From: a virus
IMG/VR virus record: IMGVR_UViG_3300031673_000041
Location: 1 to 61,382 of that record
Reading direction: 5' to 3' (one strand)
DNA length: 61,382 bases
Below the pieces are notes generated by a model. The model saw only the letters and a program-made list of their open reading frames with translations. It searched no databases and was not told the DNA's origin. A program made the translations under genes and the position numbers. How positions within the stretch are numbered: position 1 is the first letter of the stretch; the number at the start of each line of letters is the position of its first letter. Shown here piece by piece: positions 5,845 to 34,515 of this stretch.

Positions 5845-5866
5845 TTAAAAATAAATAAAATATATC

Positions 5867-5895
5867 TTGTTTTTTAAAGTAAAATTAATTATATT
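5867..5895 (+). promoter_or_regulatory. sigma70-type promoter, copy 2 of the cassette
   Basis: TTGTTT (5867-5872), 17 nt, TATATT (5890-5895); AAAAATAAATAAAA upstream; AATTAAT abuts the -10. Confidence 0.65.
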
Positions 5896-5942
5896 ATGGT
5901 AGGCATGAAACCTAAAAAACAAAATTCGAAAGGGGAAAAGCG

Positions 5943-10792: not shown

Positions 10793-11157
10793 TGGATCAT
10801 AAAGAAGTTAAATGGAAAGATTCTAAATTATGGTATTTTGCACATCCATATTCGGGAGAAAACGAACAGGGTAATTTTGACTTGAACAACGAGAGAGTGT
10901 CCGCCTTGTTGGATTTTGGTTATCGAATTTATGGCCCAATAACATATTGTCACGTATTGCACTTGGTAAAACATAGAGACTGGAAGTTCTGGATTGATTT
11001 TGACAGACCGTTTATGGAAAAATGTGATGGATTGATACTTGCGCCTGGATGGGAAAACTCAAAAGGTTGCAAGATAGAATATGAATACTTTCAAAAAGTA
11101 GGAAAGCCAATATTGTTTTACAGGGAACTGGTAAAATTGAAGGTTAAAAATAAATAA
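10792..11157 (+). CDS. nucleoside 2-deoxyribosyltransferase-like fold protein (DUF1937/DUF4406-like)
   Basis: TAATG overlap; WYFAHPYSG ... YGPITYCH ... CDGLILAPGWENSKGCKIEYEYF resembles that family. Confidence 0.4.
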   Translation: MDHKEVKWKDSKLWYFAHPYSGENEQGNFDLNNERVSALLDFGYRIYGPITYCHVLHLVKHRDWKFWIDFDRPFMEKCDGLILAPGWENSKGCKIEYEYFQKVGKPILFYRELVKLKVKNK

Positions 11158-11165
11158 AATATAAC

Positions 11166-11194
11166 TTGTATTTTAAATAAAAATTAATTATATT
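11166..11194 (+). promoter_or_regulatory. sigma70-type promoter, copy 3 of the cassette
   Basis: TTGTAT (11166-11171), 17 nt, TATATT (11189-11194); AAAAATAAATAAAA upstream. The downstream 38-nt leader is near-identical to that of copy 1. Confidence 0.7.
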
Positions 11195-11242
11195 ATAAGT
11201 GCGATGAGAAACCAAGACGACATAGAAAGAGGAGAAAGCACG

Positions 11243-11801: not shown

Positions 11802-12230
11802 ATGAGACTTGAAAAAAGATTTTTAGTTAAACAGAAAAATGGCATAATCATCCCGGATGAATGGAGATTATATCATAACAATATCAAGAAATTCAAGGAT
11901 CAGGACTTCTGGGTAGTATTCGAGAAAGTATTCAAGCAAAGATCGATACAGGAAAATCGTTATCTATTTGGTTGTGTTATTAAAATCCTTATCGAACAAA
12001 CTGAATCTTTTGGCGGATGGGAAAGCATAGAAGTTTATCGCTGGCTTGAATGGTTTTTTCTTAACAACTGGCCTGATGAAAAACCGAGACCGTGGATTAG
12101 TATTAAAAATTTATCAACGCTGGATTTTGAAGCGTTAATGGAACGGATCAGGGAATATGCACCGCAGGAATGGGACTGTATAATCCCCGAACCAAATCAA
12201 GTTAATTTAACGGGAGAAGTAATATTTTGA
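11802..12230 (+). CDS. NinB/Orf-like recombination mediator candidate
   Basis: KQRSIQENRYLFGCVIKIL resembles lambda NinB NRSLDQNRKLWACLGDV; C-terminal LSTLDFEALMERIREYA. No clear SD. Confidence 0.35.
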   Translation: MRLEKRFLVKQKNGIIIPDEWRLYHNNIKKFKDQDFWVVFEKVFKQRSIQENRYLFGCVIKILIEQTESFGGWESIEVYRWLEWFFLNNWPDEKPRPWISIKNLSTLDFEALMERIREYAPQEWDCIIPEPNQVNLTGEVIF

Positions 12231-12244
12231 ATAACTTAAAATGT

Positions 12245-12391
12245 ATGTTAAAAGAACCTTGCAAAAAACACAAATTAAATAAACTTGGATATGTAGCATG
12301 GTTTGACTGGGCAGACAAAATGATAGCAAAGGGAGAAAAGGAAATATATTGCGCTGAGTGTGGACGTTGGTTTTTTGAATGTGAATTTTAA
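12245..12391 (+). CDS. small zinc-binding protein (48 aa)
   Basis: MLKEPCKKH...GYVAWFDWADK...CAECGRWFFECEF; below the track cutoff; an upstream TTG start at 12227 is also possible. Confidence 0.45.
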   Translation: MLKEPCKKHKLNKLGYVAWFDWADKMIAKGEKEIYCAECGRWFFECEF

Positions 12392-12508
12392 TGGGAGAGA
12401 TAATATTTTGAAGTTGCCCGTTCTAAAATTAACACTTTCGTTAATTAACTATATGTCACGAAACTTAAATATAAACTTTTATAATTAACTATATTGGGAG
12501 GACGAAAG

Positions 12509-12688
12509 ATGGCAAATTATTGTAAGGATTGTGGGTGTAGAACAAATGGAGGAATCTGTTCTAATTGCCAAGAAGAATTATACATAATAGAATATCAGGG
12601 AGAGTTTGTTGAAACGATAAGTGATGAATTTGCACAAAAAGCAAACGAACAAAAAGAATATTTGAAGTACGGAAAATTGGAGGAATGA
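12509..12688 (+). CDS. small zinc-ribbon protein (59 aa)
   Basis: ATG after GGGAGGA; CKDCGC ... CSNC. Confidence 0.6.
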   Translation: MANYCKDCGCRTNGGICSNCQEELYIIEYQGEFVETISDEFAQKANEQKEYLKYGKLEE

Positions 12689-12691
12689 AAG

Positions 12692-12961
12692 ATGCCAATA
12701 GAAATAGAAAACGTAATAAAGGAATTGCAAGAATTTAATAAGGCCGACCAAAACTATATGGATATGATGGGCGATATTGAGGATAGATTTAATTTATTGT
12801 TGAAGGAATTAAATAAACTTTACGAAAAATACGATCAACTTGAAAACAAGTTATTGGAGGATTCAACAATTGGAATTAATACAACACAGGAAAGAAAACG
12901 ATGTGGTGAATTTGCTTTGGCGATATTAACACTCATTAAAAAATACGATGGGAGGACTTAA
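12692..12961 (+). CDS. hypothetical coiled-coil protein (89 aa)
   Basis: SD TGGAGGAA upstream. Confidence 0.6.
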   Translation: MPIEIENVIKELQEFNKADQNYMDMMGDIEDRFNLLLKELNKLYEKYDQLENKLLEDSTIGINTTQERKRCGEFALAILTLIKKYDGRT

Positions 12962-12962
12962 G

Positions 12963-13190
12963 ATGAAAGCAACATGGGATAATTATTTACCGATGTATAG
13001 AGAATGGCAAGAAGAACATTTTGCACCGTATAATGAACCAGATAAGCCTGAGCCTGAAGTGGAATGTGAATGTGGCTGGCAGGGTCAACAGGCCGACCTT
13101 CACAATCCAAACTCCTATGGCGATGATATTTATATCGAAGGTGAATGCTGCCCTAAATGTGGTTCTAAGAATGTAGGAGACATAAAGTGA
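12963..13190 (+). CDS. small zinc-ribbon protein (75 aa)
   Basis: ATG after GGGAGGA; CECGW ... CCPKCGS. Confidence 0.6.
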   Translation: MKATWDNYLPMYREWQEEHFAPYNEPDKPEPEVECECGWQGQQADLHNPNSYGDDIYIEGECCPKCGSKNVGDIK

Positions 13191-13339
13191 AATGTCCAAA
13201 ATGTGAAATACTTCTCGAATTGTATGATCAAGTTCCACAGACCAATAGAAATTATTGGCTTATGACAGAATTATTTGTAATGATTCATAATGGAAAAGAT
13301 GTATGTGATTATAGAGACATAACAAATGATGGGAGATAA
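13187..13339 (+). CDS. small zinc-ribbon-like protein (50 aa)
   Basis: GTGA overlap with the upstream stop; begins VKCPKCE; weak call. Confidence 0.35.
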   Translation: MKCPKCEILLELYDQVPQTNRNYWLMTELFVMIHNGKDVCDYRDITNDGR

Positions 13340-13351
13340 TGTTTTGAGAGA

Positions 13352-13502
13352 AGTTGCCTCTGTGGCGAAATCAAACGCACTGATTCCATCCAGATTTCGG
13401 CTACAGGCATACCATAAATCCATGAATTGGAGAGTATGTCACGAGTGAGATGGAAACTTTAAAACGAAATGCAGGTGTCGTCGAATCCTGTCAGGGGCAG
13501 TT
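13352..13502 (+). ncRNA. candidate structured RNA / 5' leader of the 13530-16226 operon
   Basis: An ORF-free stretch, visibly more G+C-rich than its flanks. AGTTGCCTCTG (13352-13362) pairs with CAGGGGCAGTT (13492-13502). An inner hairpin pairs GGCGAAATC with GATTTCGGC (13364-13372 / 13393-13401). ACAGG pairs with CCTGT (13403-13407 / 13487-13491). Confidence 0.35.
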
Positions 13503-13529
13503 CTCTAATTTAAAAAGGAGGAATAAAAC

Positions 13530-13769
13530 ATGACTAAAAATGACATGGGTCAAGAACATAGGATATGTAAGGAATGCTGGATCGAACACATAGAAAATTG
13601 TACTACTTGTTTTGGGTTCGGCTTAAAAAATCCAAAAGATAAATCTAAAAAACCTTATTCGCCGATAACGGCAGCAGCAGCAAAGGATAAACATGGAATA
13701 GAAGATTATGTAATTTGTCCTGAATGTCACGGGACACCGTTCGGGATAAAAAAAGGAGTCAACACATGA
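13530..13769 (+). CDS. zinc-ribbon protein (79 aa)
   Basis: SD AAAGGAGGA upstream; CKEC ... CTTC ... CPECHG. Confidence 0.65.
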   Translation: MTKNDMGQEHRICKECWIEHIENCTTCFGFGLKNPKDKSKKPYSPITAAAAKDKHGIEDYVICPECHGTPFGIKKGVNT

Positions 13770-13960
13770 TTAATCGAAAATTAATAACAAAGTTGAGAAA
13801 ACAAAACGGGTGGACTCTTGCGGAATTGTCGAAGCGGGCAAAGATAACGATTCCCGCATTGCACATGGTAGAAAAGGGGAAGGTCGGGAATCCCCGAATC
13901 AGTACGCTCACTGGCATAGCGAAAGCGTTGGGATGCGGAATTCAGGATCTTGTAAAGTAA
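13766..13960 (+). CDS. XRE-family helix-turn-helix regulator
   Basis: ATGA overlap, SD AAAGGAG; LRKQNGWTLAELSKRAKITIPALHMVEKGKVGNPRISTLTGIAKALGC is a classic HTH_3 pattern. Confidence 0.8.
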   Translation: MINRKLITKLRKQNGWTLAELSKRAKITIPALHMVEKGKVGNPRISTLTGIAKALGCGIQDLVK

Positions 13961-13971
13961 GAGGGGTGTAA

Positions 13972-15354
13972 ATGTTAAAATTATTTAGTGAGAACGTAGA
14001 ATTTATTTACGTTGAAAGTGTTATTGGTTCTGGTTATGAAGAACAAGTCGCAAAACTTGCAATTGAAGATGGGGTTGCATATAGGGCGGCACGTAAAAAT
14101 ATGCAGATACATTCTGCAATAATATTAAAAATAAATGATGAATTTAGTGGATTTTTTACGTTTCAAATTAACCACGAAGCAAAAGAATTCTGTTTACTAC
14201 AATCTGCTATGTCTTTAAATAAAAAAGACAAAGATATTTATAGAGATATGGTTGGTGAAATCATAGAACAGAATACTTTCGGTTATCCAATGATAATGAC
14301 TGTTAGCACAAAACATGATCTGGAATGTCCTGCCGTATTTGAATCAATCGGGTTTCAAACATATTTGAATTTAAGTGGATTTGCTTATATGGTTTATGGT
14401 ACATTAGATCAAGTTAGAATGAAAAGATTAGCACACGCAACTATGACAAACGCATGGACAACAACGAGGTCGGATTGGTTAAGAATGAAAAAAGAATGGA
14501 ACGAGAAAATTGAAGATGCTGGGGAAAAACATAATGTACCAAATCCCAAATATGCTTCTCGTGATGGTTGCTGGCAAGGCTCTAACGGATATTCAAACGT
14601 TGTGTTAGCATCACAAATCGTAGAAGATGGTAAGGTAATAAATAAAAAAGGTAAGTCATTTAATGGCAACGCCTCCGTTTTAGATCCTGTTGCATGTGAG
14701 GTCATATTGCGGTTTTTTATGCCAGAGACCGGTAAAAGCATTTATAATCCTTTTGGTGGTGGTGTTCAATTTGGTTTTATATCTGGTAGTTATGGTTATA
14801 AATATGTAGCAAGTGAAATAAGACAAAATCAATGTGATGCTAACAATAAAATATGTAGTGATTTTAAAGATGTGAAATGGATCAAAAGTGATAGCTCAAC
14901 CTATAAACCGGATGGAATGTTTGATTTAATTTTCACCTGTCCGCCATATTATAGGGTTGAAAAATATATAGATTATGATGGAAGTTCACCTGGTGGAGAG
15001 ATTAATACGCTTGGAACGTATGAAGAATTTAGGGATGCTTTGTTTTCTGGTTATAAAAAAGCTATAGATAGTTTAAATGATAATTGTTTTTTTGTTGCTA
15101 TGGTTGGCGATAGTAGGGGAAAGGACGGTGGCTATTATGGATGTGAAGCCGAGCATGAATTGTTTTTTAGGGAGCAAGGATTATATATTTATAATAAAAT
15201 AGTTTATTTAGAGTGTGAGTTTACAAGGTTAGCACACGCAAAAAGAACATTGGATTATAGGAAATTCCCTAAAAGAGAACAAAAGATACTTGTGTTTTAT
15301 AAAGGTGATATGAAAAAAATAAAAGAATTATATCCGCCAATTGGTAGATTGTAA
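13972..15354 (+). CDS. DNA N6-adenine/N4-cytosine methyltransferase with an extra N-terminal (GNAT-like?) domain
   Basis: SD AGAGGGG upstream. Motif I IYNPFGGGVQFG, motif IV DLIFTCPPYY, C-terminal KILVFYKGD, as in phage amino-methyltransferases. The N-terminal ~150 aa are unrelated and end in AVFESIGFQ. Confidence 0.8.
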   Translation: MLKLFSENVEFIYVESVIGSGYEEQVAKLAIEDGVAYRAARKNMQIHSAIILKINDEFSGFFTFQINHEAKEFCLLQSAMSLNKKDKDIYRDMVGEIIEQNTFGYPMIMTVSTKHDLECPAVFESIGFQTYLNLSGFAYMVYGTLDQVRMKRLAHATMTNAWTTTRSDWLRMKKEWNEKIEDAGEKHNVPNPKYASRDGCWQGSNGYSNVVLASQIVEDGKVINKKGKSFNGNASVLDPVACEVILRFFMPETGKSIYNPFGGGVQFGFISGSYGYKYVASEIRQNQCDANNKICSDFKDVKWIKSDSSTYKPDGMFDLIFTCPPYYRVEKYIDYDGSSPGGEINTLGTYEEFRDALFSGYKKAIDSLNDNCFFVAMVGDSRGKDGGYYGCEAEHELFFREQGLYIYNKIVYLECEFTRLAHAKRTLDYRKFPKREQKILVFYKGDMKKIKELYPPIGRL

Positions 15355-16226
15355 TGAAAGAATTTAAAAGTTTTTACAAATCTATAGAACATAGAAAATT
15401 CAATACTTGGTGTAAATATACTAAGAGATTAGACACCTATGGTTGTGGTTGCCAGCACAATTGTAAGTATTGCTATGCAAAAAGCTTATTGAGTTTTAGG
15501 GGTTTGTTTGGTGTTGAGTTGCCAAGGGTTGCAAACATTCATAAAATAAGAAATAAAATTAGAAAATTACCTAAATATGATTTTGTAAAATTGGGTGGTA
15601 TGACAGATTGTTTTCAGCCAATAGAATCACAAGAAAGTGTCACATATAATACAATTTTATTACTTAATCAATATAGAATTAGTTATTTGATTGTAACAAA
15701 AAACAATATGGTTTCAAGTGATTATTACATACAAATTTACGATAAAAACTTAGCACACTTTCAAATAACAATAACAACTACAGACGATAAGAAATGTTTT
15801 GAATATGAAAATGCACCTGGTACGAGTAAAAGAATAAAATCTATTGAAAAATTATATGGCTTAGGTTACGATGTAAGTGTCAGGTTGAGTCCATATCTTG
15901 AACAAAACATAGACTTTAAAACATTAAACAATATAAGGTGTAATAAAATACTTGTAGAGTTTTTGAAGGTTAACTCGTTTATAAGAAAATCTTTTAATAT
16001 AGACTATTCAGAATATACATTGGAATATGGTGGTTATTATCACTTGCCGTTAAAAAAGAAAATTGAACTTGTAAATAAAATAAATGGATTTGAACAATTA
16101 AGCGTTGGTGAATATGTTAAGGATCACCATTTATGGTTTAGAGATAATGTAAATTATAATAAAGGAGATTGTTGTAATCTTGACAGAATATATGAGGCAG
16201 ACAAACAGTTAGCGTTATTTAATTGA
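15354..16226 (+). CDS. radical SAM enzyme, spore-photoproduct-lyase-like (SplB / COG1533 type)
   Basis: TAATG overlap with the methyltransferase gene. YGCGCQHNCKYCYA (CxxxCxxC), GGMTDCFQPIE, YLIVTKNN and ITITTTD...GTSKRIKSIEKL..GYDVSVRLSPY match the family pattern. Confidence 0.7.
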   Translation: MKEFKSFYKSIEHRKFNTWCKYTKRLDTYGCGCQHNCKYCYAKSLLSFRGLFGVELPRVANIHKIRNKIRKLPKYDFVKLGGMTDCFQPIESQESVTYNTILLLNQYRISYLIVTKNNMVSSDYYIQIYDKNLAHFQITITTTDDKKCFEYENAPGTSKRIKSIEKLYGLGYDVSVRLSPYLEQNIDFKTLNNIRCNKILVEFLKVNSFIRKSFNIDYSEYTLEYGGYYHLPLKKKIELVNKINGFEQLSVGEYVKDHHLWFRDNVNYNKGDCCNLDRIYEADKQLALFN

Positions 16227-16241
16227 TTATAAAAATAACAC

Positions 16242-16270
16242 TTGCTTTTTACGATATTAATAATTATATT
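16242..16270 (+). promoter_or_regulatory. sigma70-type promoter, copy 4 of the cassette
   Basis: TTGCTT (16242-16247), 17 nt, TATATT (16265-16270); ATAAAAATAA upstream; AATAAT abuts the -10. Confidence 0.6.
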
Positions 16271-16336
16271 AAATAGAGGTCAAGGACAGAATTTTTATAA
16301 GGACACATTTTGAAATGGAAATTAGATTATTAATAA

Positions 16337-16385
16337 TGCCAAAGTTGATGTTTTTGACCAGAATGTGTCCGCTTTGGCATTTTTG
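16337..16385 (+). terminator. terminator/attenuator-like hairpin in the leader of the replication module
   Basis: TGCCAAAG (16337-16344) pairs with CTTTGGCA (16372-16379), followed by TTTTTGTT; the 27-nt loop is large. Confidence 0.4.
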
Positions 16386-16397
16386 TTGGGAAATTAA

Positions 16398-16631
16398 ATG
16401 AATCAAACTAAAAAGAAGAAATTATATAAAAAACGTAAATTGCATTACCAGCTTTTTGGCGAATCAATGGTTGATAGAGCTATGAAGTATTATGATTTGC
16501 ACAACGGACAATATGGATGCCATAGGTTTGTCGCATCAGAAATCAGGATAAGCAATGTAGAGGCTTGGGAATTAATCCGTATCGGTCTTTGGCGTAGAAA
16601 CAATGATTGGAAAAGAAAGGTCGAAAATTAA
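16398..16631 (+). CDS. hypothetical basic protein (77 aa)
   Basis: first ORF after promoter copy 4; Lys-rich N-terminus; stop overlaps the next start. Confidence 0.55.
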   Translation: MNQTKKKKLYKKRKLHYQLFGESMVDRAMKYYDLHNGQYGCHRFVASEIRISNVEAWELIRIGLWRRNNDWKRKVEN

Positions 16632-17332
16632 TGGCACGCCCACAAAAAGATGGACTTGATTATTTTTCTCTTGATGTGCACAATGATGATAAATTGGATT
16701 TAATAGAAGCAAAATATGGGATTGAAGGTTATGGTATTATTATACGATTATGGAAAAAGATTTACTCAACTGGTTACTGGTATGAATGGACTGAAAATAA
16801 AAAATTACTATTTAAAAAATCAATTAATGTTGATTTGGAATTATTGGACAGTATTATAGACGATGCAATACATTTTAATATATTCGATAAAAAAATGTTT
16901 GAAAATTATCAAATATTAACATCGAATGGAATACAGAAGCGATACCTGGAAGGAATTATTAGAAGAAAAAACAGACGATTTATTAAAGAATATTGTCTTT
17001 TTGATGTTTCCGCATACATAAACTCACAAGATGATAGCATAAACGTTGAAATAGTAAACATTGGTACACAAAGTAAAGTAAAGTATAGTAAAGTAAAAGA
17101 AAGTAAAGGAAAGGAAAGTATAGTAAAACATAAGTATGGCGAATTTAAAAATATTTTACTTACTGACCAAGAACTTGAAAAACTAAATACTGAATACACC
17201 GAAGAAACAACTCTCGAAGCCATTAAATATCTTTCTGAATCTATTGAGATGAAAGGTTACAAATATAAGTCTCATTACCTTGCTATGAAAAAATGGGTGT
17301 TTGATGCGATTAAGAAAAAGGAGCCGTTCTGA
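16631..17332 (+). CDS. replisome organizer, DUF4373 (Lin1244/Lin1753-like N-terminus) / DnaD-type
   Basis: MARPQKDGLDYFSLDVHNDDKLDLIEAKYGIEGYGIIIRLWKKIY matches the DUF4373 N-terminal pattern; TAATG overlap start. Confidence 0.75.
   Translation: MARPQKDGLDYFSLDVHNDDKLDLIEAKYGIEGYGIIIRLWKKIYSTGYWYEWTENKKLLFKKSINVDLELLDSIIDDAIHFNIFDKKMFENYQILTSNGIQKRYLEGIIRRKNRRFIKEYCLFDVSAYINSQDDSINVEIVNIGTQSKVKYSKVKESKGKESIVKHKYGEFKNILLTDQELEKLNTEYTEETTLEAIKYLSESIEMKGYKYKSHYLAMKKWVFDAIKKKEPF
17070..17128. repeat. C-free A/G/T repeat tract inside the replisome-organizer gene (iteron / origin candidate)
   Basis: No C on the + strand for 59 nt. AAGTATAGTAAA occurs twice (17081, 17116). Four to five AGTAAAG-type units are also present. 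Confidence 0.6.
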
Positions 17333-17820
17333 TGACAAAACAAGAATTCCATAATACATTTTCACCAATGGCTTTAATACACTGGAAAAGCATAGAAGCA
17401 ATAAAGAGCCTTGAGCCAGGCTATTACAAAGAACTCAAAGACTTTTCAGTAAATACTTTTTATCATATTATGCAGGAACTATCCCAAAATTACAACCCGA
17501 AAGCATTCCCAACACCAACAGAATTAAAAGCATCTTGTTCTGGGATGGATAGAGAACGCCCCCCAGATACACGGGAAACCTATTTTAATTCTAATGCCTA
17601 TAGGACAACGTGTGATTCATCACCTGCAAGAGAAGCCCACAAGAAATTTATAGAAGATTTAGGGGGAAGGTGTGCAAGGCTTGAAGAAACAGGAAAGCAC
17701 ATCTGTAAGGCAGACATGGGAAAACCAATGATGCAGGCGGGATATATGATTGGTCAAGTTTTAATTGCAAGGCCGTATCAGTTACAGAAAGAATATGAAG
17801 CCAAACACAATGAGGTATGA
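17332..17820 (+). CDS. hypothetical protein (162 aa), replication-module member
   Basis: ATGA overlap with the organizer gene; no motif recognised. Confidence 0.65.
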   Translation: MTKQEFHNTFSPMALIHWKSIEAIKSLEPGYYKELKDFSVNTFYHIMQELSQNYNPKAFPTPTELKASCSGMDRERPPDTRETYFNSNAYRTTCDSSPAREAHKKFIEDLGGRCARLEETGKHICKADMGKPMMQAGYMIGQVLIARPYQLQKEYEAKHNEV

Positions 17821-18075
17821 ATGAACTGCACTATGTGTAATGGAGTGGGGAAAGTTAATATTAAATTTTTTAATGAGAACTGGTATACGAACTTATATTG
17901 TGAATTAGATACTCATAAAAAATATATACCATGTGGTTTTTGCCATGGATCTGGGCGTATCACATTGTGGTACTGTGTAAGTTATTATTTGTATTATTCT
18001 AATTATTATAATGTTAAATTTTTCATATATGATTTATTGATAAACATTAAGGAGTTTTTTAATTGGAGGGTTTGA
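17821..18075 (+). CDS. DnaJ-type zinc-finger protein with aromatic hydrophobic tail
   Basis: CTMCNGVG and CGFCHGSG (CxxCxGxG twice), then TLWYCVSYYLYYSNYYNVKFFIY. Confidence 0.55.
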   Translation: MNCTMCNGVGKVNIKFFNENWYTNLYCELDTHKKYIPCGFCHGSGRITLWYCVSYYLYYSNYYNVKFFIYDLLINIKEFFNWRV

Positions 18076-18084
18076 GTAGAGACT

Positions 18085-18198
18085 ATGCAAAGTTTATTTA
18101 AAGAATATGAGGCGAAGCTGATTGTTGAAAAACATCGTGAAGGAGCGATTGGAGAAATTGATTTACAATTTAACCGAAGTTATGCGAAATTTGAATAA
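18085..18198 (+). CDS. hypothetical protein (37 aa)
   Basis: ATG after GGAGGG; short; weak call. Confidence 0.35.
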   Translation: MQSLFKEYEAKLIVEKHREGAIGEIDLQFNRSYAKFE

Positions 18199-18249
18199 AA
18201 CAAATTACTGGCAACAAATCAAAATAAATGCCAATAATTTGAATTGTGT

Positions 18250-18358
18250 TCTACCATAGCGTAAAAGCTCCCAGTGAATTAGAGTAGATCGTGGACTAAA
18301 CCGGAACGTACCACGGTGAAGGGCCAACATAGAGTCCGGGTGAAGGTTGGATGGTAGA
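18250..18358 (+). ncRNA. candidate structured RNA (three helices plus loop-loop complementarity)
   Basis: P1 pairs TCTACCAT (18250-57) with ATGGTAGA (18351-58). Hairpin A pairs CGTGG with CCACG (18290-94 / 18311-15). Hairpin B pairs CCAAC with GTTGG (18324-28 / 18346-50). Loop A CCGGA (18301-05) is complementary to loop B TCCGG (18335-39). There is no + strand ORF, and the region is more G+C-rich than its flanks. Confidence 0.4.
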
Positions 18359-18496
18359 TTGCATAACATAAAAAGATTGAGAGGATGAAATGGAACAAAC
18401 GGGTTGTGTGATTATCACATATGAAGTATGATCAATCAGATCGATCATGTAAATATGTCGATCATTTAAAGAATTTAAAGATGGGGAGATTAGGTT

Positions 18497-18658
18497 ATGA
18501 TTAATGTAATATCTTTTTGTTTGATAGTAACACAAGTAGCTATAATTTTGTTGGGTATCTGCGTTATAAAAGTTCATAAAGATTTAAAAATATTAAAAGA
18601 TGATTATAATTCCCGTATTATATGTCGATCATTAAAAGGAAAAGAGAAAGGAAAATGA
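18497..18658 (+). CDS. small membrane protein (53 aa)
   Basis: ATG after GGGGAGA; TM MINVISFCLIVTQVAIILLGICVI; below the track cutoff. Confidence 0.5.
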   Translation: MINVISFCLIVTQVAIILLGICVIKVHKDLKILKDDYNSRIICRSLKGKEKGK

Positions 18659-18661
18659 ATC

Positions 18662-18922
18662 ATGAAAACAATACTTGACAAACTGGAATTGGCTGATGGT
18701 CATTTGTTCAGAGTAAATATCGGTGGACAGACTATGGTTGACAACGCAAGGGCGGAACTTGCGGAAGCAATGGAACTACTGATCAAGGGGTATGATGTTC
18801 ATGATGACATTGACCTACTCAAAAAGGAGTACGGGCAAATCAAAAATGTCCCATTCAAAAAAGAAAATACGGCTCGATTGCAGAAATGGGTATACAGTCT
18901 ATTCGGGATTCCGTACCCATGA
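18662..18922 (+). CDS. hypothetical protein (86 aa)
   Basis: ATG 3 nt after the upstream stop. Confidence 0.6.
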   Translation: MKTILDKLELADGHLFRVNIGGQTMVDNARAELAEAMELLIKGYDVHDDIDLLKKEYGQIKNVPFKKENTARLQKWVYSLFGIPYP

Positions 18923-18975
18923 ATACGCCGGCTAAGAAAGGATTTACATAGAAATTGAAAGGAGAGTGTCGGGAG

Positions 18976-19140
18976 ATGGAGAAAGAATTAAAAGAAGCAC
19001 AGCAAATTTTACATGACACATTTGGTGACGATTGGAATGATTTAATGAAGACTATGTACGAACCAAGGGTGCTTGTTGCTATGGTAAAATTTGCACAGTC
19101 AAATGACCGCACGGTGATAAAAGGAGAGCAAGAGAAATGA
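18976..19140 (+). CDS. hypothetical protein (54 aa)
   Basis: internal ATG after AAAGGAGAG; same start cassette as 19294. Confidence 0.55.
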   Translation: MEKELKEAQQILHDTFGDDWNDLMKTMYEPRVLVAMVKFAQSNDRTVIKGEQEK

Positions 19141-19247
19141 GTAATCAAATTTCAGAATTTGTAAATGAGTTTTTTGAAGAATTTATAGAATTTTTAATTG
19201 AGCGGGGATGTGAAAACGAAACAGCAGAGGAAGAAGCAGAAAGATAA
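19137..19247 (+). CDS. hypothetical acidic protein (36 aa)
   Basis: ATGA overlap; short; weak call. Confidence 0.35.
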   Translation: MSNQISEFVNEFFEEFIEFLIERGCENETAEEEAER

Positions 19248-19293
19248 TTACACGAAATTGATCCAGATATTTGATTGAAAGGAGAGTGTCGGG

Positions 19294-19539
19294 ATGGAGA
19301 AAGAATACAGATTTTTGATTATATGGAAAGATTTAGAGGGTAATTGCAAACAAGGAACTGTGCATACTAATTATATGGGGGATTTTTTGGGAAGTGGATT
19401 GTACGCTAACAAAGAAAAAATGCGATTATTCAAATTGTCCATTAATACTCAAACCAGAGAAAAAAAGCAAGGCAAGTGTAGCACCGAGGCTTTAAAAAAG
19501 AAAGGCAGGAGAGAGAATGAAGAAAGAAATGTGTACTAA
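19294..19539 (+). CDS. hypothetical protein (81 aa)
   Basis: SD AAAGGAGAG upstream; start cassette duplicated from 18955-18988. Confidence 0.6.
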   Translation: MEKEYRFLIIWKDLEGNCKQGTVHTNYMGDFLGSGLYANKEKMRLFKLSINTQTREKKQGKCSTEALKKKGRRENEERNVY

Positions 19540-19747
19540 TGACTATGTGCCATATACTGGTTTTTATGATTTGCGCTATTATGAAATTCCTAAAAGAATG
19601 TTCAAGAAATTATGGAAAATACAAGAGATGCTTTATCATATGAACCAGAAAAGGGATTATTATAAAAAATGGCATCCGGCGCAATGGCAAAAGGCACAAT
19701 TACTAAGTGCTGTTTATCAACAAATATTATTTGGATACGCCGGCTAA
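19517..19747 (+). CDS. hypothetical protein (76 aa)
   Basis: SD GGCAGGAGAG upstream. Confidence 0.55.
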   Translation: MKKEMCTNDYVPYTGFYDLRYYEIPKRMFKKLWKIQEMLYHMNQKRDYYKKWHPAQWQKAQLLSAVYQQILFGYAG

Positions 19748-19773
19748 GAATATTTACAATGAAGGGAATAATA

Positions 19774-19944
19774 ATGATAACAGTAAATGACATTAAAGAA
19801 AAAAGAAAGGCAGGAGAGAAGAAAAAACCAAGGAGGTTGAAACAAAAAATCAATAACGTATTTGACGTATTTTTTGAGGGTGTAAGGGTGGGTAAAGAAA
19901 TTGAAAAAAGAAATGAATCACACAGAAAGAAGGAATTAAGATAA
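19774..19944 (+). CDS. hypothetical basic protein (56 aa)
   Basis: internal ATG of track ORF 19669..19944, preceded by GAAGGGA. Confidence 0.5.
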   Translation: MITVNDIKEKRKAGEKKKPRRLKQKINNVFDVFFEGVRVGKEIEKRNESHRKKELR

Positions 19945-20429
19945 TGTGTACTAATATGTTCTGTGCTAACCACAAGTCAAACAATCCTGGATGGGCAAGG
20001 AGGGTTTATGGCAACTGCATAAAGCCGTGGCGCAGAAAATTAGACGGCTGTGAATTAGAAGAGAAATGGGATGCCAGTGCAGGATCTGAAATTGGGTTTG
20101 TAAAAAGTGCAGAGATACTGCCTCTTGATGGGAAATACTACGGAACAAGAGTGGTGGTGAATTTTAAAGATGATGATTCATCTGAAATTAAATTATGGTA
20201 TAATGGAACATTCCATCCAAGCACCAGAGAAATTGAAAGTTATGGGTATACAAAAGAACAATATGATGAAGGCGAAATTGTAGAAGATGGGTGGGGTGGA
20301 CAGTCATCAGTAAAAGATATTATTGAGATATGTGATTCGCATTTTGAAAGTGAGGAAACATTAACGCTGGCTCAATTTATTGTTGGTGCAATAAATGCCA
20401 TTTGTAATTTAAAGGAGGTCAAGCAATGA
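19944..20429 (+). CDS. hypothetical protein (161 aa)
   Basis: TAATG overlap; no motif recognised. Confidence 0.65.
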   Translation: MCTNMFCANHKSNNPGWARRVYGNCIKPWRRKLDGCELEEKWDASAGSEIGFVKSAEILPLDGKYYGTRVVVNFKDDDSSEIKLWYNGTFHPSTREIESYGYTKEQYDEGEIVEDGWGGQSSVKDIIEICDSHFESEETLTLAQFIVGAINAICNLKEVKQ

Positions 20430-20698
20430 AAGGTGAAATAAAAAAACAAATGAAAATACAGATATCAGAAATACCAGAATTATTCAGCCAGTCTAAAGGA
20501 TTAATAACGGGCGGCACGTTGAGCTTAAATGAGCTATCTGATCAAACAGCTATGTTATATCTTTTTATGTTTGAGCAAAATCAAATGCGCAGTTTTCGTT
20601 TATGCTCGGATTCAATGCAAGTTTTATATGATATGGTTGGCGAATATTTAGAACATATAAAGCAAGGGCAGGAGGTCAATAATGAAAAACATATCTGA
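20426..20698 (+). CDS. hypothetical protein (90 aa)
   Basis: ATGA overlap; SD AAGGAGG. Confidence 0.6.
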   Translation: MKGEIKKQMKIQISEIPELFSQSKGLITGGTLSLNELSDQTAMLYLFMFEQNQMRSFRLCSDSMQVLYDMVGEYLEHIKQGQEVNNEKHI

Positions 20699-20861
20699 AA
20701 TAAAAGAAGAAATACTAAAGAAACTGATAGACAGAGCAATGAATGTTGCATATTTTGAAGGACTAAACGATTCAGACAGTGTTTCTTTTGATAAAATTGT
20801 TAATGAGCATAAAAATATTATAATAAATGCGATAAAGGAGGTCAACAATGAAAAAGATTGA
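20682..20861 (+). CDS. hypothetical protein (59 aa)
   Basis: SD GCAGGAGG upstream; below the track cutoff. Confidence 0.5.
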   Translation: MKNISEIKEEILKKLIDRAMNVAYFEGLNDSDSVSFDKIVNEHKNIIINAIKEVNNEKD

Positions 20862-21675
20862 CATACTATTAATCATCTTAATCGCATTTGTGATGATGAT
20901 TGTGTTCTTTGGATTGGCAAGAGGGCAGGGTACGTTCGAATTTGTCAAAGGTCAGAACTACTCTGTAAAGTGGGAGAATATCGATCAAGAGAACAATTTA
21001 TACAATTTAGACCGTGAATTTATTGTTCATTCCTGGAATTATAGTTCAGGCTGGGTCACAAATCGAACCGTAGAATTGTTCATGGTTTTTCCTGCGACTG
21101 TGAATAGCCTTTATTTTGTTACGTCAATATATCCTGATCGGGGAGCCGTAGAATCTGATCCAGCAGATACGGTTTATGTTAATGTGATAGACGGAGATAT
21201 TCCTCCACCTGACGAACCGCCTCCAACTGGTGGCACTCCGATGCCTGATATGGCGAGAGCATGGACAATCCACAATAACGGTCAAGGATGGATTTCGCAG
21301 ACCGAACAACTTAATAACAAAATCTGCCTGACTGGTGATAATGAAATAAGGAAAACATACGAACTTAACGGGGGATCGTACCTTACTCAGATTTCATTTA
21401 TGGGAATTCTCATAAGAACTTTTGGAGCCGAGACAGATACGATCACAAGTATAGACCCAATGGATGTGGAACGTAATCAAAAAACATACAATTTAGATGA
21501 AGGAACTTATGACTTAGTCTATAGAAATCTTGGAGATACTACTTCTCTGGAATATGGCATCCATGCTTACAATAATAATAATTTATTCGACTGGGCGACC
21601 GCTTCTGTAGAGGAATTAAAAACACCGAGAAAAGCTTTGTCACCGAGGTCAACATGGGCAGAGGAAGGAGAATAA
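20848..21675 (+). CDS. secreted or membrane-anchored protein with a Pro-rich linker (275 aa)
   Basis: SD AAGGAGG upstream; N-terminal MKKIDILLIILIAFVMMIVFFGLARGQG; PPPDEPPPTGGTP linker. Confidence 0.7.
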   Translation: MKKIDILLIILIAFVMMIVFFGLARGQGTFEFVKGQNYSVKWENIDQENNLYNLDREFIVHSWNYSSGWVTNRTVELFMVFPATVNSLYFVTSIYPDRGAVESDPADTVYVNVIDGDIPPPDEPPPTGGTPMPDMARAWTIHNNGQGWISQTEQLNNKICLTGDNEIRKTYELNGGSYLTQISFMGILIRTFGAETDTITSIDPMDVERNQKTYNLDEGTYDLVYRNLGDTTSLEYGIHAYNNNNLFDWATASVEELKTPRKALSPRSTWAEEGE

Positions 21676-21679
21676 AGAA

Positions 21680-22237
21680 ATGACAAAAAGACAGGCTGTC
21701 CAAGAAACAAAAAAACATATTAAAATGGTACGGGATACAATTCATAGTTTAATTGTTCGTCTTTTAACTCAAAGCATGGAGCATGATCAAAGCAAATTAA
21801 AGAGTCCAGAGTTTGAAATTTTCCTCAAATACACTCCTAAATTGAGAAATACAACTTATGGATCAGATGAATATAAAATATTTTTGCAAGAAATGAAGCC
21901 AGCACTTGATCATCATTATGAAGTTAATAGGCACCACCCAGAGCATTTTAATAAATATGTTTGTAATGGTTGTTTTAAAGAGTTTCAACTTATGCCAAAT
22001 TATTGTGATGTTTGTGGGTATTCGCAATTTCAGAAAGAATCTGATATGAGCCAAATGAATATGCTTGATTTGATTGAAATGTTCGCAGATTGGTATTCGG
22101 CAACAAAACGTCATGCGGATGGCGATATACGAGAAAGTATTAAGATTAATACTAAACGATTTAGTATCTCAGAGCAACTTGTTTCTATTATGCAGAATAC
22201 AGCCGATTTGTTGGATGATATTAAATTAAATGAATAA
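21680..22237 (+). CDS. HD-like/DUF5662-like protein with an inserted zinc ribbon
   Basis: SD GAAGGAG upstream; MEHDQSKL ... LDHHYEVNRHHPEHF; inserted CNGC...CDVCG. Confidence 0.35.
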   Translation: MTKRQAVQETKKHIKMVRDTIHSLIVRLLTQSMEHDQSKLKSPEFEIFLKYTPKLRNTTYGSDEYKIFLQEMKPALDHHYEVNRHHPEHFNKYVCNGCFKEFQLMPNYCDVCGYSQFQKESDMSQMNMLDLIEMFADWYSATKRHADGDIRESIKINTKRFSISEQLVSIMQNTADLLDDIKLNE

Positions 22238-22334
22238 GTCGAGAAAAAGATGGATTGAGGAAATATAAAATATTTTTGCCCATATTGAAATGTTGGCAAG
22301 AGTGAATAAGATTCATTAAAAGAAAGGGGAGAGA

Positions 22335-22538
22335 ATGAAGATAGAAATAGACAAAGAAGCTTTAAGGTTTGAATTTAAAGATGGTGGGTTGAATTTATTC
22401 TGGAAGGATTTATTTTTAGGAATAGATCATGGCATGGAATTTCAAAAGGAAGTGATGAACGCATTATTTAAAGCATACAATGAATGTGTTCGAGATGATA
22501 TTCAGCCTAATCTTGAGGAAAATGAGGCAGGAGAATGA
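22335..22538 (+). CDS. hypothetical protein (67 aa)
   Basis: SD AAAGGGGAGAG upstream. Confidence 0.6.
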   Translation: MKIEIDKEALRFEFKDGGLNLFWKDLFLGIDHGMEFQKEVMNALFKAYNECVRDDIQPNLEENEAGE

Positions 22539-22780
22539 AAGATCCAGTGGGAATGCGAGAGAATGAATCATTCGAAGGGCGGCGCAAAAAATATAACAGA
22601 ATAAGAAAAGATCAAAGAGAAATGAGGCAAGCGTTTTTTGTTAAGTGGATCAAAGAAGGCAAAAGCAAGAGCCATGTGTATTCACTATTTATGAAAACTG
22701 GAATGACCGGGAAGAATCAAACACAAATTAGAAGTCAGTACAATTATTATAAAGACATGATTGACAGGGGATTGTTATAA
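22535..22780 (+). CDS. hypothetical basic protein (81 aa)
   Basis: ATGA overlap. Confidence 0.55.
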   Translation: MKDPVGMRENESFEGRRKKYNRIRKDQREMRQAFFVKWIKEGKSKSHVYSLFMKTGMTGKNQTQIRSQYNYYKDMIDRGLL

Positions 22781-22795
22781 TAATAGGAGCCAAAT

Positions 22796-23227
22796 ATGAA
22801 AAATTTAATTTTGATTTGTTTATTATTATTCGTATCTTATAGTTATGCAGGAATAAATAAAAACAAGGTGGCCATGATGCTCACGAGTTTTTCAGGATCT
22901 TATCTCGAATCTACAAAAGAGACAAACCAAAGAACGGACAAAGGGTATCATGAATATGCTTATGGCTCGAAGGTTTTACTTTTCGGGACAGGAGTATTGC
23001 TGGGTGTTGAGCATTCCAAGGATCACAGTCCTTTAATAACATTTAAAAACGCAGTGGCACTGACCCTGATGAATTGGGTTGTCTGGGAAATGAGGTATGA
23101 ATATCTAAAACCAGAAGCAGACACTTACAACGGATGGCCTTTTGACGGTAACTGGATCGACCCACAAATGACTTGGGTATGGGATATTGGAAGATTTTTA
23201 ATGGGATTTATTTTGTATTTAATGTGA
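22796..23227 (+). CDS. membrane protein with N-terminal signal sequence (143 aa)
   Basis: SD TAGGAGC upstream; MKNLILICLLLFVSYSYAG, then further hydrophobic segments. Confidence 0.65.
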   Translation: MKNLILICLLLFVSYSYAGINKNKVAMMLTSFSGSYLESTKETNQRTDKGYHEYAYGSKVLLFGTGVLLGVEHSKDHSPLITFKNAVALTLMNWVVWEMRYEYLKPEADTYNGWPFDGNWIDPQMTWVWDIGRFLMGFILYLM

Positions 23228-23234
23228 GGGAAAA

Positions 23235-23417
23235 GTGAAAATCAGAAAATGGCAAATAGTAAGAGTTGATAAAAATAATAATATTACTAAACGGTTAAAA
23301 TGTAAATGTTGCCGAAAATCTCAAGCAGAATTTATTATGGGACAACTGAAGAGGTTGCGGAATGGATTTGATCTTAGGGTTGTTCCCGTTATGACTGAAT
23401 GGATTGAGTGGGATTGA
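23235..23417 (+). CDS. hypothetical protein (60 aa)
   Basis: GTG start after GAGGGAAAA. Confidence 0.5.
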   Translation: MKIRKWQIVRVDKNNNITKRLKCKCCRKSQAEFIMGQLKRLRNGFDLRVVPVMTEWIEWD

Positions 23418-23638
23418 TGAGAGGAATAATACATATAAAAAGCGGGTCATACTTATTTAGAGATGATCATGGATATTCCCCGATTATTTTTGCTTGGGAT
23501 ATTCATGCGCCGATCGAGAATGATCGAGTTGTATGTAGTAAATGGGGGAAACTTCCCAAAAGATATATTGCAGAGTTTTTTAATATAGACAATCCACCGC
23601 AGACCGTTAGCTATCAACCATTATTGGGAGATATGTAA
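23417..23638 (+). CDS. hypothetical protein (73 aa)
   Basis: ATG overlapping the upstream TGA; a GTG at 23408 is an alternative start. Confidence 0.5.
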   Translation: MRGIIHIKSGSYLFRDDHGYSPIIFAWDIHAPIENDRVVCSKWGKLPKRYIAEFFNIDNPPQTVSYQPLLGDM

Positions 23639-23640
23639 TA

Positions 23641-24423
23641 GTGAAAGAACAGATAAAATTAAATAATTTATCTATTGAGGAAACCAATAATATTATACCG
23701 CCCCATATGATCATGCTCAATTATCGTGGATCAATAGCACATGGGACATATGTTCCCCAAGAGGACAAGGATTCTATCGATGATAAGGATATATTGGGAA
23801 TATGTTTTGCAGAACCCAATGTATATCTTGGGTTGCATAACTTTGAACAAAAAGAAAAGAAATATAAGGAATGGGATTCTGTTGTGTATGAGATTCGCAA
23901 AGCATTTCGATTGCTGTTAAAACAAAATCCAAATATTCTTAGTTTACTTTGGGTTGATGATATTCATAGAATTTATACATCAGAAGTAGGAAAACTACTT
24001 TTAGAAAACAGAGATATGTTTTCTTCCAAACAAGCATATCATTCATTCGTGGGCTACGCATATAGTCAGTTACATCGGATGGAGCATTGTAATTTTAATG
24101 GATACATGGGAGCTAAGAGAAAAGCATTGGTTGAACGATTCGGATTTGACGTAAAAAACGCTTGTCATCTTATTAGACTTCTTCGAATGGGGATTGAATT
24201 TTTAACAGAGGGGAGATTGATTATAGCGAGACCAGATGCAGAGGAACTAAAAGAAATTAAAAAAGGGAAATGGACATTACAACAAGTTAAAAAGGAATCT
24301 GATCATTTGTTTGATTTGGCAAAAGAAGCATATGTAAGATCAGACCTTCCACCCAGACCAGATTATTATAAAGCAGAAGAAATATTAATTAGTATCATAA
24401 GGAATTATTTGTATTTAATGTGA
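23641..24423 (+). CDS. Pol-beta-superfamily nucleotidyltransferase, RlaP (RNA-repair-associated) type
   Basis: YRGSIAHGTYVPQEDKDSIDDKDILGI (GS...D.D) and VVYEIRKAFRLLLKQNPNILSLLW match the RlaP/Nuc-transf pattern. Confidence 0.65.
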   Translation: MKEQIKLNNLSIEETNNIIPPHMIMLNYRGSIAHGTYVPQEDKDSIDDKDILGICFAEPNVYLGLHNFEQKEKKYKEWDSVVYEIRKAFRLLLKQNPNILSLLWVDDIHRIYTSEVGKLLLENRDMFSSKQAYHSFVGYAYSQLHRMEHCNFNGYMGAKRKALVERFGFDVKNACHLIRLLRMGIEFLTEGRLIIARPDAEELKEIKKGKWTLQQVKKESDHLFDLAKEAYVRSDLPPRPDYYKAEEILISIIRNYLYLM

Positions 24424-24425
24424 GA

Positions 24426-24532
24426 AGGATGATAGCTTATTGGAAGAGCATGTGCACAAATCCCGGGTGGAAACAATTAGAAACAAGTTCCTGGTGGAAA
24501 CGCAGGTAATGGTTCGAATCCATTTCATCCCA
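24426..24532 (+). ncRNA. tRNA-like element (canonical D-arm, T-arm and acceptor pairing, aberrant 57-nt centre)
   Basis: Acceptor: AGGATGA (24426-32) pairs with TCATCC (24525-30). D-arm: GCTT-ATTGGAA-GAGC. T-arm: AATGG-TTCGAAT-CCATT (24507-24523, by block count). No 5-bp/7-nt anticodon arm could be drawn. The centre holds a direct repeat, TCCCGGGTGGAAAC / TTCCTGGTGGAAAC. Confidence 0.3.
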
Positions 24533-24564
24533 CTCACAATATTTAATGTAAGGGGAAAGTAATC

Positions 24565-24780
24565 ATGGGAGTATTAAATTGTGATAGAGGTAATTGTGGC
24601 AGTCTTTTGGTCGAGAGATATTCAGACAATTATGGATGTATATGCAAAGAATGTTTTGAGGAGTTAATAAATTCTAACCTTACAAATATTGGAATTTTCA
24701 TGAATAGCCCAAGGGGATCATTTAGCGATTATAAAATATCAACTCGCACAAGATTGGAGAGAATATTCAAGAAGTTATAA
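24565..24780 (+). CDS. small zinc-binding protein (71 aa)
   Basis: SD AAGGGGAAAG upstream; CDRGNC ... CICKEC. Confidence 0.6.
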   Translation: MGVLNCDRGNCGSLLVERYSDNYGCICKECFEELINSNLTNIGIFMNSPRGSFSDYKISTRTRLERIFKKL

Positions 24781-24804
24781 ATTATACAGGAGGGAAATTA
24801 TAAC

Positions 24805-24978
24805 ATGGAATGCAAACATAATTATTTTCCACTAAATCCCGGACAAACATATGATAAAATAGCGAAAGATGAGGATGGCAATAGAACTTGTCTGCACTAT
24901 GAATGCAACTCATATGCCATGCTTTTCTGTACGAAGTGTGGAACAACAAAAGAAGTGATTGCAAAGGAATTGGAATAA
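24805..24978 (+). CDS. small zinc-ribbon protein (57 aa)
   Basis: SD CAGGAGGGA upstream; C..H...C ... CTKCG; below the track cutoff. Confidence 0.5.
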   Translation: MECKHNYFPLNPGQTYDKIAKDEDGNRTCLHYECNSYAMLFCTKCGTTKEVIAKELE

Positions 24979-24998
24979 TAGAGGAAATAGCAAAGGGA

Positions 24999-25133
24999 AT
25001 GTACGAATATTGCAAATTAATAAAAAAGATATGTCCACTATGTAGTGATGATGGAAAACATTGTGGACAACAGACAGGGGAAAATGAAATATTTAAAATG
25101 AAGAAATGTCCGAGGGAGAAACAAAGAAAATGA
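24999..25133 (+). CDS. small Cys-rich protein (44 aa)
   Basis: internal ATG of track ORF 24903..25133 after AAAGGGA; CPLC ... C. Confidence 0.4.
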   Translation: MYEYCKLIKKICPLCSDDGKHCGQQTGENEIFKMKKCPREKQRK

Positions 25134-25561
25134 AATACTGTGAAGAGATTGTGGTACAATTAGAGGAAGCAATCAAGTCTGGACTTTCAGATAAAAAGTC
25201 TTGTGATTTAGTGGGTATTAATAAAGTAACGTTCTATCGATGGCAAAACAAATACTTACAAGATGATAAAACACCGAATCCTGTTTATAAAAGCAACTTA
25301 AGCAACCGGTTAAAAAAAGCACGAGCGGAAAAGTGCAAACTCTATGCTGAGATGATTAAAACTGCAGGCATAGGGGAATTTGAAGCGACTTGTCCGCATT
25401 GTAATGAAAAGCATATAATTAAACTTCCACAGAAACAATGGCAAGCGATAGCATGGTTAGCAGAGCGGACAGAGTTCGATGAATTTGGAGCAAGACAGAA
25501 GATCGATAGCAATATTGCAGTCAAGGGGCCAATTGAGGTTATCGTAAAAGATGACAGATAA
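25130..25561 (+). CDS. terS: terminase small subunit candidate (HTH)
   Basis: ATGA overlap. N-terminal HTH-like AIKSGLSDKKSCDLVGINKVTFYRWQNKY. Sits immediately upstream of terL and overlaps it. Confidence 0.6.
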   Translation: MKYCEEIVVQLEEAIKSGLSDKKSCDLVGINKVTFYRWQNKYLQDDKTPNPVYKSNLSNRLKKARAEKCKLYAEMIKTAGIGEFEATCPHCNEKHIIKLPQKQWQAIAWLAERTEFDEFGARQKIDSNIAVKGPIEVIVKDDR

Positions 25562-26834: not shown

Positions 26835-26845
26835 GGAGGGAGAGC

Positions 26846-27070
26846 ATGAATAATGACATTAAAAAAAAATTAGATGAACTTGAAGTAAGAATTGGTCGAA
26901 TCGAGTTATTAGTAGATGATGGATATACACATCGATGTCCTATTTGTGGAAGGGGATTGTTAAGATTAGGACACAACCAGAAAGATAGATGTGATGAATG
27001 TTATTCGGAAGTCAGGCAGCAGGGAAATGGATTTTTTATTGAAACAATAGCTTCGGATTATGAAATATAA
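26846..27070 (+). CDS. small zinc-ribbon protein (74 aa)
   Basis: SD AAGGAGGGAG upstream; CPICG ... CDEC. Confidence 0.6.
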   Translation: MNNDIKKKLDELEVRIGRIELLVDDGYTHRCPICGRGLLRLGHNQKDRCDECYSEVRQQGNGFFIETIASDYEI

Positions 27071-34303: not shown

Positions 34304-34515
34304 TGAGACCGCTTTACTGTTTAGGGAAAAGAAAAAAGCTGTACAAGGGATTATCTGTGTGCGGTGCGAAACTGTTGATGTATTCTAATGGGACTACGGG
34401 CAGAATCGAAATCAAGTGTCCGAAATGTGGATGTATTTACAAGGCATTTTTCACAACAGCGTCAAAGGTTGACGAAATTAAAACTGATTACAAAATAATA
34501 TTTACAGGAGAATAA
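34303..34515 (+). CDS. Mu Com-like zinc-finger protein candidate
   Basis: TAATG overlap. CGAKLLMYSNGTTGRIEIKCPKCGCIY resembles Mu Com CNKLLFKADSFDHIEIRCPRCKRHI. The first CxxC knuckle is not conserved. Confidence 0.4.
   Translation: MRPLYCLGKRKKLYKGLSVCGAKLLMYSNGTTGRIEIKCPKCGCIYKAFFTTASKVDEIKTDYKIIFTGE

Follow-up and report, generated by a model that had tools for sequence, protein, structure and literature searches.

The window, by which we mean the whole stretch of DNA analysed (61,382 bp), is a complete IMG/VR phage genome with direct terminal repeats and a G+C content of 38%. Essentially all of its long open reading frames (ORFs), and every recognised gene, lie on the + strand. PHROG and Pfam matches point to a tailed phage with a Firmicute-type host; they include a DnaD-type replisome organiser, a T4-type large terminase (TerL), a Mu-F-like protein and a capsid protein. 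A promoter cassette occurs in four copies (at 2889, 5867, 11166 and 16242), which align nearly base for base and define the early transcription units; given the copy near 16242, the G+C-rich island studied here and the gap that holds it lie inside the transcription unit starting there. The genome is extremely mosaic, with an early region made up entirely of orphans. The features on which the analysis draws are the following.

2869-2925, 5847-5903, 11146-11202 and 16222-16278: four-copy promoter cassette, A-rich, TTG..T-17-TATATT (alignment)
13972-16226: protein with a DNA-methyltransferase-type match and a neighbour with a photolyase-like match (PHROG/Pfam)
16607-17332: DnaD-type replisome organiser, 241 aa (PHROG/Pfam)
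17821-18075: 84-aa zinc-finger ORF, bracketed by two copies of AAAGAATATGARGCSAAR
18085-18198, + strand: 37-aa ORF, relic of the C-terminal tail of a DnaB-type replicative helicase (Pfam, tblastx, blastp)
18201-18241: inverted repeat of 13 bp with a 15-nt loop, directly after the stop codon of the relic
18250-18358, + strand: G+C-rich core of 109 nt with P1, mini-hairpin, arm A, hairpin B, loop match and repeats
18258-18269, + strand: mini-hairpin of 3 bp, added in completing the fold
18288-18317, + strand: arm of hairpin A
18324-18350, + strand: hairpin B
18385-18431, + strand: very short ORFs (8 and 13 codons) preceded by a Shine-Dalgarno-like GAGAGGA site (read from the sequence)
18404-18471: cluster of palindrome, promoter-like, GATC and TCGATCAT motifs (sequence scans)
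18497-18658, + strand: orphan 53-aa gene encoding an N-terminal hydrophobic helix and a charged tail (ORF list)
25551-26834: T4-type large terminase, TerL (PHROG/Pfam)

A helicase-gene relic beside the gap

The 37-aa ORF, whose stop lies one base before the gap at 18199-18496, aligned with positions 224-254 of the 255 in Pfam DnaB_C (E 6.5e-6; 26.2 bits vs a cut-off of 27) and, by tblastx and blastp, with the full-length 445-aa DnaB of a related locus (L058; 43% identity over 28 aa, E 9e-7). Searching all six frames of the whole genome for DnaB returned positions 18100-18195 only. Since both the DnaB N-terminal domain and the Walker A/B ATPase core were absent from this search, the 37-aa ORF is a relic and not a helicase, which makes it a small useful annotation by itself. 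Its GGAGGG lies 14 nt before the ATG, a poor Shine-Dalgarno spacing, and an AT-rich tract (21-22% G+C, ~17950-18080) precedes it. The phage appears to have lost a helicase gene or to have recombined across one, in which case it would probably rely on the helicase of its host, and the stretch ~17950-18496 looks like the worn, unstreamlined end of a replication module.

We also considered the 162-aa protein encoded upstream and the 37-aa tail as one split DnaB and rejected this, the 162-aa part having no significant DnaB similarity. The end of the 162-aa gene (17785-17812) and the start of the relic (18094-18118) share AAAGAATATGARGCSAAR (peptide KEYEAK) at 16 of 19 nt. Because the two copies bracket the 84-aa zinc-finger ORF, that ORF could be an insertion with a duplicated target; the match could also be due to chance.

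The inverted repeat at 18201-18241 may act as a bidirectional or minus-strand terminator, a reading suggested by TTTTATTCAAATTT following the hairpin on the minus strand. Further downstream, a near-perfect palindrome (TGTGAT-T-ATCACA, 18404-18420) overlaps a weak promoter-like site on the + strand (TTGTGT-17-TATGAT), lies immediately upstream of the GATC/TCGATCAT cluster and may be an operator for the small genes that follow. The region 18404-18432 was rejected as a member of the early promoter cassette, since no alignment with its four copies could be made. On the minus strand, a promoter-like TTTACA-17-CATACT lies at 18453-18425; the gap further holds five GATC sites within ~170 nt and three TCGATCAT boxes. 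Reading the sequence and the ORF list, we found tiny ORFs (18385-18431) and then a small membrane-protein gene (18497-18658) after the island, in agreement with an earlier note on this DNA; the product of the latter, 53 aa long, is called on 6 contigs, stands alone in its cluster and has no Pfam match.

Sequence and fold of the G+C-rich island

The earlier note, made from the sequence alone, had proposed that 18250-18358 is a compact structured RNA with complementary hairpin loops in an ORF-free gap. The pairings on which it relied are all in the sequence: TCTACCAT (18250-18257) with ATGGTAGA (18351-18358) for the closing helix P1, CGTGG (18290-18294) with CCACG (18311-18315) for hairpin A and CCAAC (18324-18328) with GTTGG (18346-18350) for hairpin B, with the loops complementary over CCGGA (at 18301) and TCCGG (at 18335). 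The core was also correctly described as richer in G+C than its flanks (0.50, precisely 49.5%, vs 0.26 and 0.32 for the 100-nt stretches bordering it), and the gap as lacking a + strand ORF at the core, where all three + frames are closed; the long ORFs in 18199-18496 lie on the minus strand only. The local G+C content, 0.54 in 80 nt, is the highest among the ORF-free gaps, the others reaching 0.26-0.47 apart from one, at 0.50, that lies under a long ORF running off the window end and is probably coding. A repeated motif said to follow the 5' half of each hairpin, GGTGAAGG, does occur twice (at 18315 and 18339, the sole two copies in the whole genome), but the copies are not structurally equivalent, the first lying after the 3' half of hairpin A and the second inside the loop of hairpin B. 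TAGAGT is likewise duplicated (18280 and 18330). CCGG is common in the genome, with 125 sites, and the island as a whole has no second copy there.

Pairing in P1 can continue outwards to a total of 14 bp if a 2-nt bulge is allowed (18244-18257 with 18351-18366). Together with the mini-hairpin and a CCC/GGG helix, the drawn helices form a four-way junction with 0 unpaired junction bases, predicted at -25.2 kcal/mol vs -26.1 for the minimum free energy (MFE) structure, a gap of 0.9 kcal/mol. Ensemble probabilities were ~1.0 for P1, 0.57 for hairpin A and just 0.14 for hairpin B.

We then compared the fold with shuffled sequences. The MFE z-score was -0.28 for the 109-nt core, -0.34 when the segment was 131 nt long and -1.18 over the entire gap (298 nt), and the island on the minus strand scored -0.38; the core thus showed no excess folding stability over shuffles on either strand. 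The power of this test is low: the Rfam-supported tRNA-like RNA of the same phage scored +0.12, which means that an RNA may be present despite a poor z-score. A perfect closing helix of at least 8 bp, spanning 60-140 nt, was found in 21% of dinucleotide shuffles of the gap. The architecture was coded more fully as an 8-bp closing helix with two internal hairpins of at least 5 bp and a 5-nt loop-loop match; so defined, it has 2 instances in the real genome (the island and 34510-34642) and 2.5 +/- 2.7 per shuffled genome when 120-nt blocks are shuffled with their composition kept. When this gap alone was shuffled with its G+C island kept, the architecture appeared in 0.08% of shuffles, a figure to be read with criteria fitted post hoc to the observation. 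Over the ~2.5 kb of ORF-free sequence that a reader would inspect, ~0.1 instance is expected. The short motifs of the island showed no genome-wide enrichment. The observation is therefore partly confirmed, in that the island had been described accurately and an excess over chance is unsupported: of such tidy, hand-drawn folds in a G+C-rich gap, about two are expected by chance per genome of this size. The only other instance of the architecture, 34510-34642, runs from non-coding sequence into the start of ORF 34579-35535.

Known RNA families and search for relatives

The island matched no known riboswitch, ribozyme or tRNA class; the earlier note, by eye, had likewise been unable to assign it. 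Rfam 15, whose families take in riboswitches, ribozymes, Weinberg motifs and phage RNAs such as pRNA and C4, was run over the whole genome at gathering thresholds and had the tRNA model at 24426-24532 as its sole match. A permissive scan of 18000-18700 (E<=10) gave four chance matches, all far below their gathering scores and none within 18254-18380; one low-scoring match on the upstream hairpin extends to 18253. ARAGORN made no call on the island, neither at default settings nor when relaxed (introns allowed, threshold lowered until 73 junk calls appeared), yet in the latter mode it called 24427-24531. The island also contains no T-loop (UUCRANY).

Resemblances to known systems were partial throughout. 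Like the purine riboswitch type, the island has a closing P1 and two hairpins with Watson-Crick complementary loops; unlike it, the island has 32 extra nt and the mini-hairpin between P1 and hairpin A, and its loops measure 16-17 nt vs 7 nt. Neither the purine family nor any other riboswitch matched the island in Rfam at E<=10, and no expression platform (terminator or helix sequestering a Shine-Dalgarno site) was found downstream of it. The pRNA of phi29-type phages is a phage RNA that likewise has two complementary loops and can pair between molecules, and both island loops carry the palindrome CCGG; the island differs in having no Rfam pRNA match and in lying within the early replication region, away from the genome ends, of a 61-kb phage with terminal repeats and a T4-type large terminase, which is not small and protein-primed. 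With the tRNA or tRNA-like cloverleaf it shares a four-way junction and an arm with a 5-bp stem adjoining the 3' strand of the closing helix. It departs from the cloverleaf in its loops of 17 nt and 6 nt, which have no T-loop or D-loop consensus, and in its junction without linker nucleotides, and it is 24426-24532, not the island, that relaxed ARAGORN and the Rfam tRNA model pick out. RNase III intercistronic processing sites in phage early mRNAs (T7, SP82) are single irregular, unbranched hairpins of ~50-60 nt. The island, too, lies between cistrons of a polycistronic early transcript and has a long, irregular 14-bp closing helix with a bulge, but its fold is branched.

Three further candidates were set aside: a likeness to the THF riboswitch, through AGAGUAG...GGUGAA, which we take to be a motif of that kind, found no Rfam support; attP or a retron non-coding RNA would meet a genome with no integrase or reverse transcriptase; and a Y-RNA one with no Ro/TROVE protein or RtcB. 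A literature search on the GGUGAAGG motif returned only unrelated papers, for example primer lists.

Relatives of the island were sought by sequence, by motif and by structure. With blastn, 50,697 phage records (INPHARED) and 72,556 plasmids (PLSDB) gave no match. Scanning IMG/VR, JGI metagenomes and GTDB genomes for the motifs, both exact and gapped, yielded either nothing or chance-like matches, mostly in G+C-rich genomes, and none of these extended past the motif by nhmmer or with a covariance model. Using the organiser protein and TerL as queries, we collected 23 and 80 related loci, respectively; these 103 loci share with the window just the one query gene, and the island was absent from all of them by nhmmer, blastn and a covariance model (R1) built from the four-way-junction fold. 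Over the 1.1 Mb of related loci and the window, R1 found the island itself alone, and in 156 bacterial genomes (5 reached through chance motif matches and 151 from the phylum of one of these) it found nothing. Both flanking proteins (162 aa and 86 aa) are found, identical in sequence, on six contigs, and among 5.8 billion clusters their only matches are to themselves. With no homologues of the island or its neighbours among billions of sequences, nothing indicates selection. As for the 80 phages of the TerL set (loci L025-L104), whose TerL is 54-63% identical, no other protein is common to them and positions 12000-27000 of the window, bar two single-locus matches.

The same collections bear on the minus-strand ORF 18296-18577, which is open for 93 codons and which the earlier note had considered spurious. 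This judgement stands: the ORF has no Pfam or PHROG match, and it was never called among 15 billion proteins, where the + strand neighbours of 37, 53, 84 and 86 aa were all called. Among 1.84 billion representatives it had one match, a 451-aa protein that is a six-fold tandem-repeat artefact and covers the low-complexity residues 8-47 of the ORF, outside the island. A conserved or translated form of this ORF, the outcome that the earlier note had set against its own RNA, was thus sought in protein collections and not found.

Possible origins and functions of the island

With a confidence that stops a little short of even, we favour the reading that the island is a passively transcribed non-coding spacer or a recombination scar in an eroded replication module. 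The organiser would have been kept and DnaB cut to its last ~32 codons (18100-18195); with a DnaD organiser present and only a DnaB tail, ~17950-18496 probably represents debris or the junction of a past deletion or recombination. We infer a scar origin, passive transcription in the early operon from the cassette near 16242, and the lack of a discrete structural function, the four-way junction being drawable, on this account, simply because any purine-rich sequence of such length with 50% G+C offers many pairings. A DnaB relic lies upstream and the genome has no full DnaB; the + frames at the core are closed; the MFE is no better than that of shuffles; the architecture has 2 real vs ~2.5 shuffled instances, with hairpin B at 0.14; there is no Rfam or ARAGORN match and no homologue; and the short motifs are not enriched. 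All of this speaks for a spacer, and a helicase-gene relic beside the gap offers an ordinary explanation for a non-coding stretch in a compact genome.

Against the spacer reading, phages keep their genomes compact and tend to shed idle DNA. The island has the top local G+C content among the ORF-free gaps, its architecture arises in just 0.08% of gap shuffles and its P1 forms at ~1.0 in the ensemble. The phage also has two other non-coding G+C-rich islands with some independent RNA support (24426-24532 and 13345-13510). Translations of the island in all six frames, with X written for each stop, had no match in Pfam or PHROG that would point to decayed coding sequence, and with no protein vestige in the island the debris reading is circumstantial. 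The surroundings resemble gene remnants at phage mosaic junctions in their truncated DnaB tail with no partner sequence, their poor translation signals and their orphan genes; the island itself differs from such remnants, as it has no residual protein similarity in any frame and a G+C content above that of the relic next to it.

A real structured RNA on the + strand, released from the early polycistronic transcript as a compact four-way junction (P1, mini-hairpin, long arm A and arm B), appears unlikely, though it is the strongest competitor of the spacer. Its CCGGA and UCCGG loops might pair within the molecule or, CCGG being palindromic, between molecules. It could serve as an intercistronic processing or stability element uncoupling the small genes downstream from those for replication, or be a small stable RNA cut from the operon. 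The G+C peak in an ORF-free gap, highest among the gaps, is what such an RNA would explain, together with a P1 extendable to 14 bp, a junction free of unpaired bases so close to the MFE, an architecture so rare in shuffles of the gap, and a position in the sense direction of an operon under the four-copy promoter cassette; the phage's bona fide tRNA-like element has an equally uninformative z-score (+0.12). What counts against it is that the island has no excess stability, no Rfam family, no paralogue or homologue that could be found, and no promoter or terminator of its own that could be found, that hairpin B is weakly populated in the ensemble, and that the architecture test is post hoc, with instances expected by chance genome-wide. 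The structured-RNA interpretation is thus neither refuted nor supported. We lean against it, since its support consists of a local G+C peak and helices picked post hoc, with stability, Rfam and ARAGORN silent.

Somewhat less probable still is the specific form of an orphan phage RNA class, a ~110-125-nt four-way junction cut from the early operon, with CCGG loops kissing intra- or intermolecularly and UAGAGU...GGUGAAGG units as a repeated tertiary or protein-binding motif. Were the RNA reading true, the island would be a new small structured RNA of an uncultured phage with an unusual loop-loop design, and a single-genome orphan without a functional handle.

Alternatively, the element might act as DNA, the whole gap being a replication origin or regulatory region just downstream of the replication genes, which we regard as improbable. 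The two GGTGAAGG and two TAGAGT copies, the three TCGATCAT boxes, the inverted repeats and the GATC cluster would then serve for protein binding and methylation, and unwinding would take place in the AT-rich tract at 17950-18080. Non-coding, repeat-rich origins located downstream of the replication genes occur in some dairy streptococcal and lactococcal phages, and the gap here comes right after the organiser, the 162-aa orphan ORF and the helicase relic, with an AT-rich flank (21-22% G+C), a number of short repeats, both direct and inverted, and five GATC sites inside ~170 nt, in a phage that encodes a protein with a DNA-methyltransferase-type match. However, the repeats are short and no more frequent than chance would give, the island has no motif in common with the repeat tract inside the organiser gene, and GC skew gave no origin signal; origins are usually A+T-rich, whereas the island is G+C-rich.

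We see only a slim chance for a small RNA (sRNA) from the opposite strand, ~220 nt long, starting near 18418 from TTTACA-17-CATACT and ending at the 18241-18201 hairpin and its U-run. The island's complement, with its two CCUUCACC motifs, would be part of such an RNA, which could regulate the early operon or the 53-aa membrane-protein gene by an antisense mechanism, much as type I antitoxins do. The promoter-like site at 18453-18425 agrees at 9 of 12 positions, but matches of this quality are common by chance (30 found vs 20 expected in 4 kb). The minus strand offers TTTTATTCAAATTT after the hairpin, whose loop of 15 nt is, however, unusually large and whose stem is AT-rich. A 236-nt minus-strand fold reached z -2.04, mostly owing to that hairpin, the island itself scoring -0.38 on this strand. 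The neighbour does encode a small hydrophobic protein with a charged tail; on the other side, all recognised genes lie on the + strand and no homologues were found.

That the minus-strand ORF is a real gene, with the island as its 3' end, is effectively refuted: its frame is open for 93 codons, and 14 comparable antisense ORFs of at least 100 aa occur elsewhere in this + strand genome; it overlaps the + strand 53-aa gene by ~80 nt, was not called, has no Pfam or PHROG match and finds its sole match in an artefact.

Two other islands of this phage are RNA-like. The tRNA-like element at 24426-24532 scored 38.3 bits with the Rfam tRNA model, carries a 48-nt insert in the anticodon region that holds GGTGGAAAC twice, and begins 3 nt past the stop codon of a gene (23641-24423) for an RlaP-family nucleotidyltransferase. 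When relaxed, ARAGORN reads 24427-24531 as tRNA-Ser(gga) with a 39-nt intron. The second, at 13345-13510, is a non-coding G+C-rich island upstream of a methyltransferase-like/radical-SAM-like gene pair. It has no Rfam match, and its predicted fold, with a long closing helix, reached z -2.66 (3 of 200 shuffles fold as well); it appears to be a better RNA candidate than 18250-18358.
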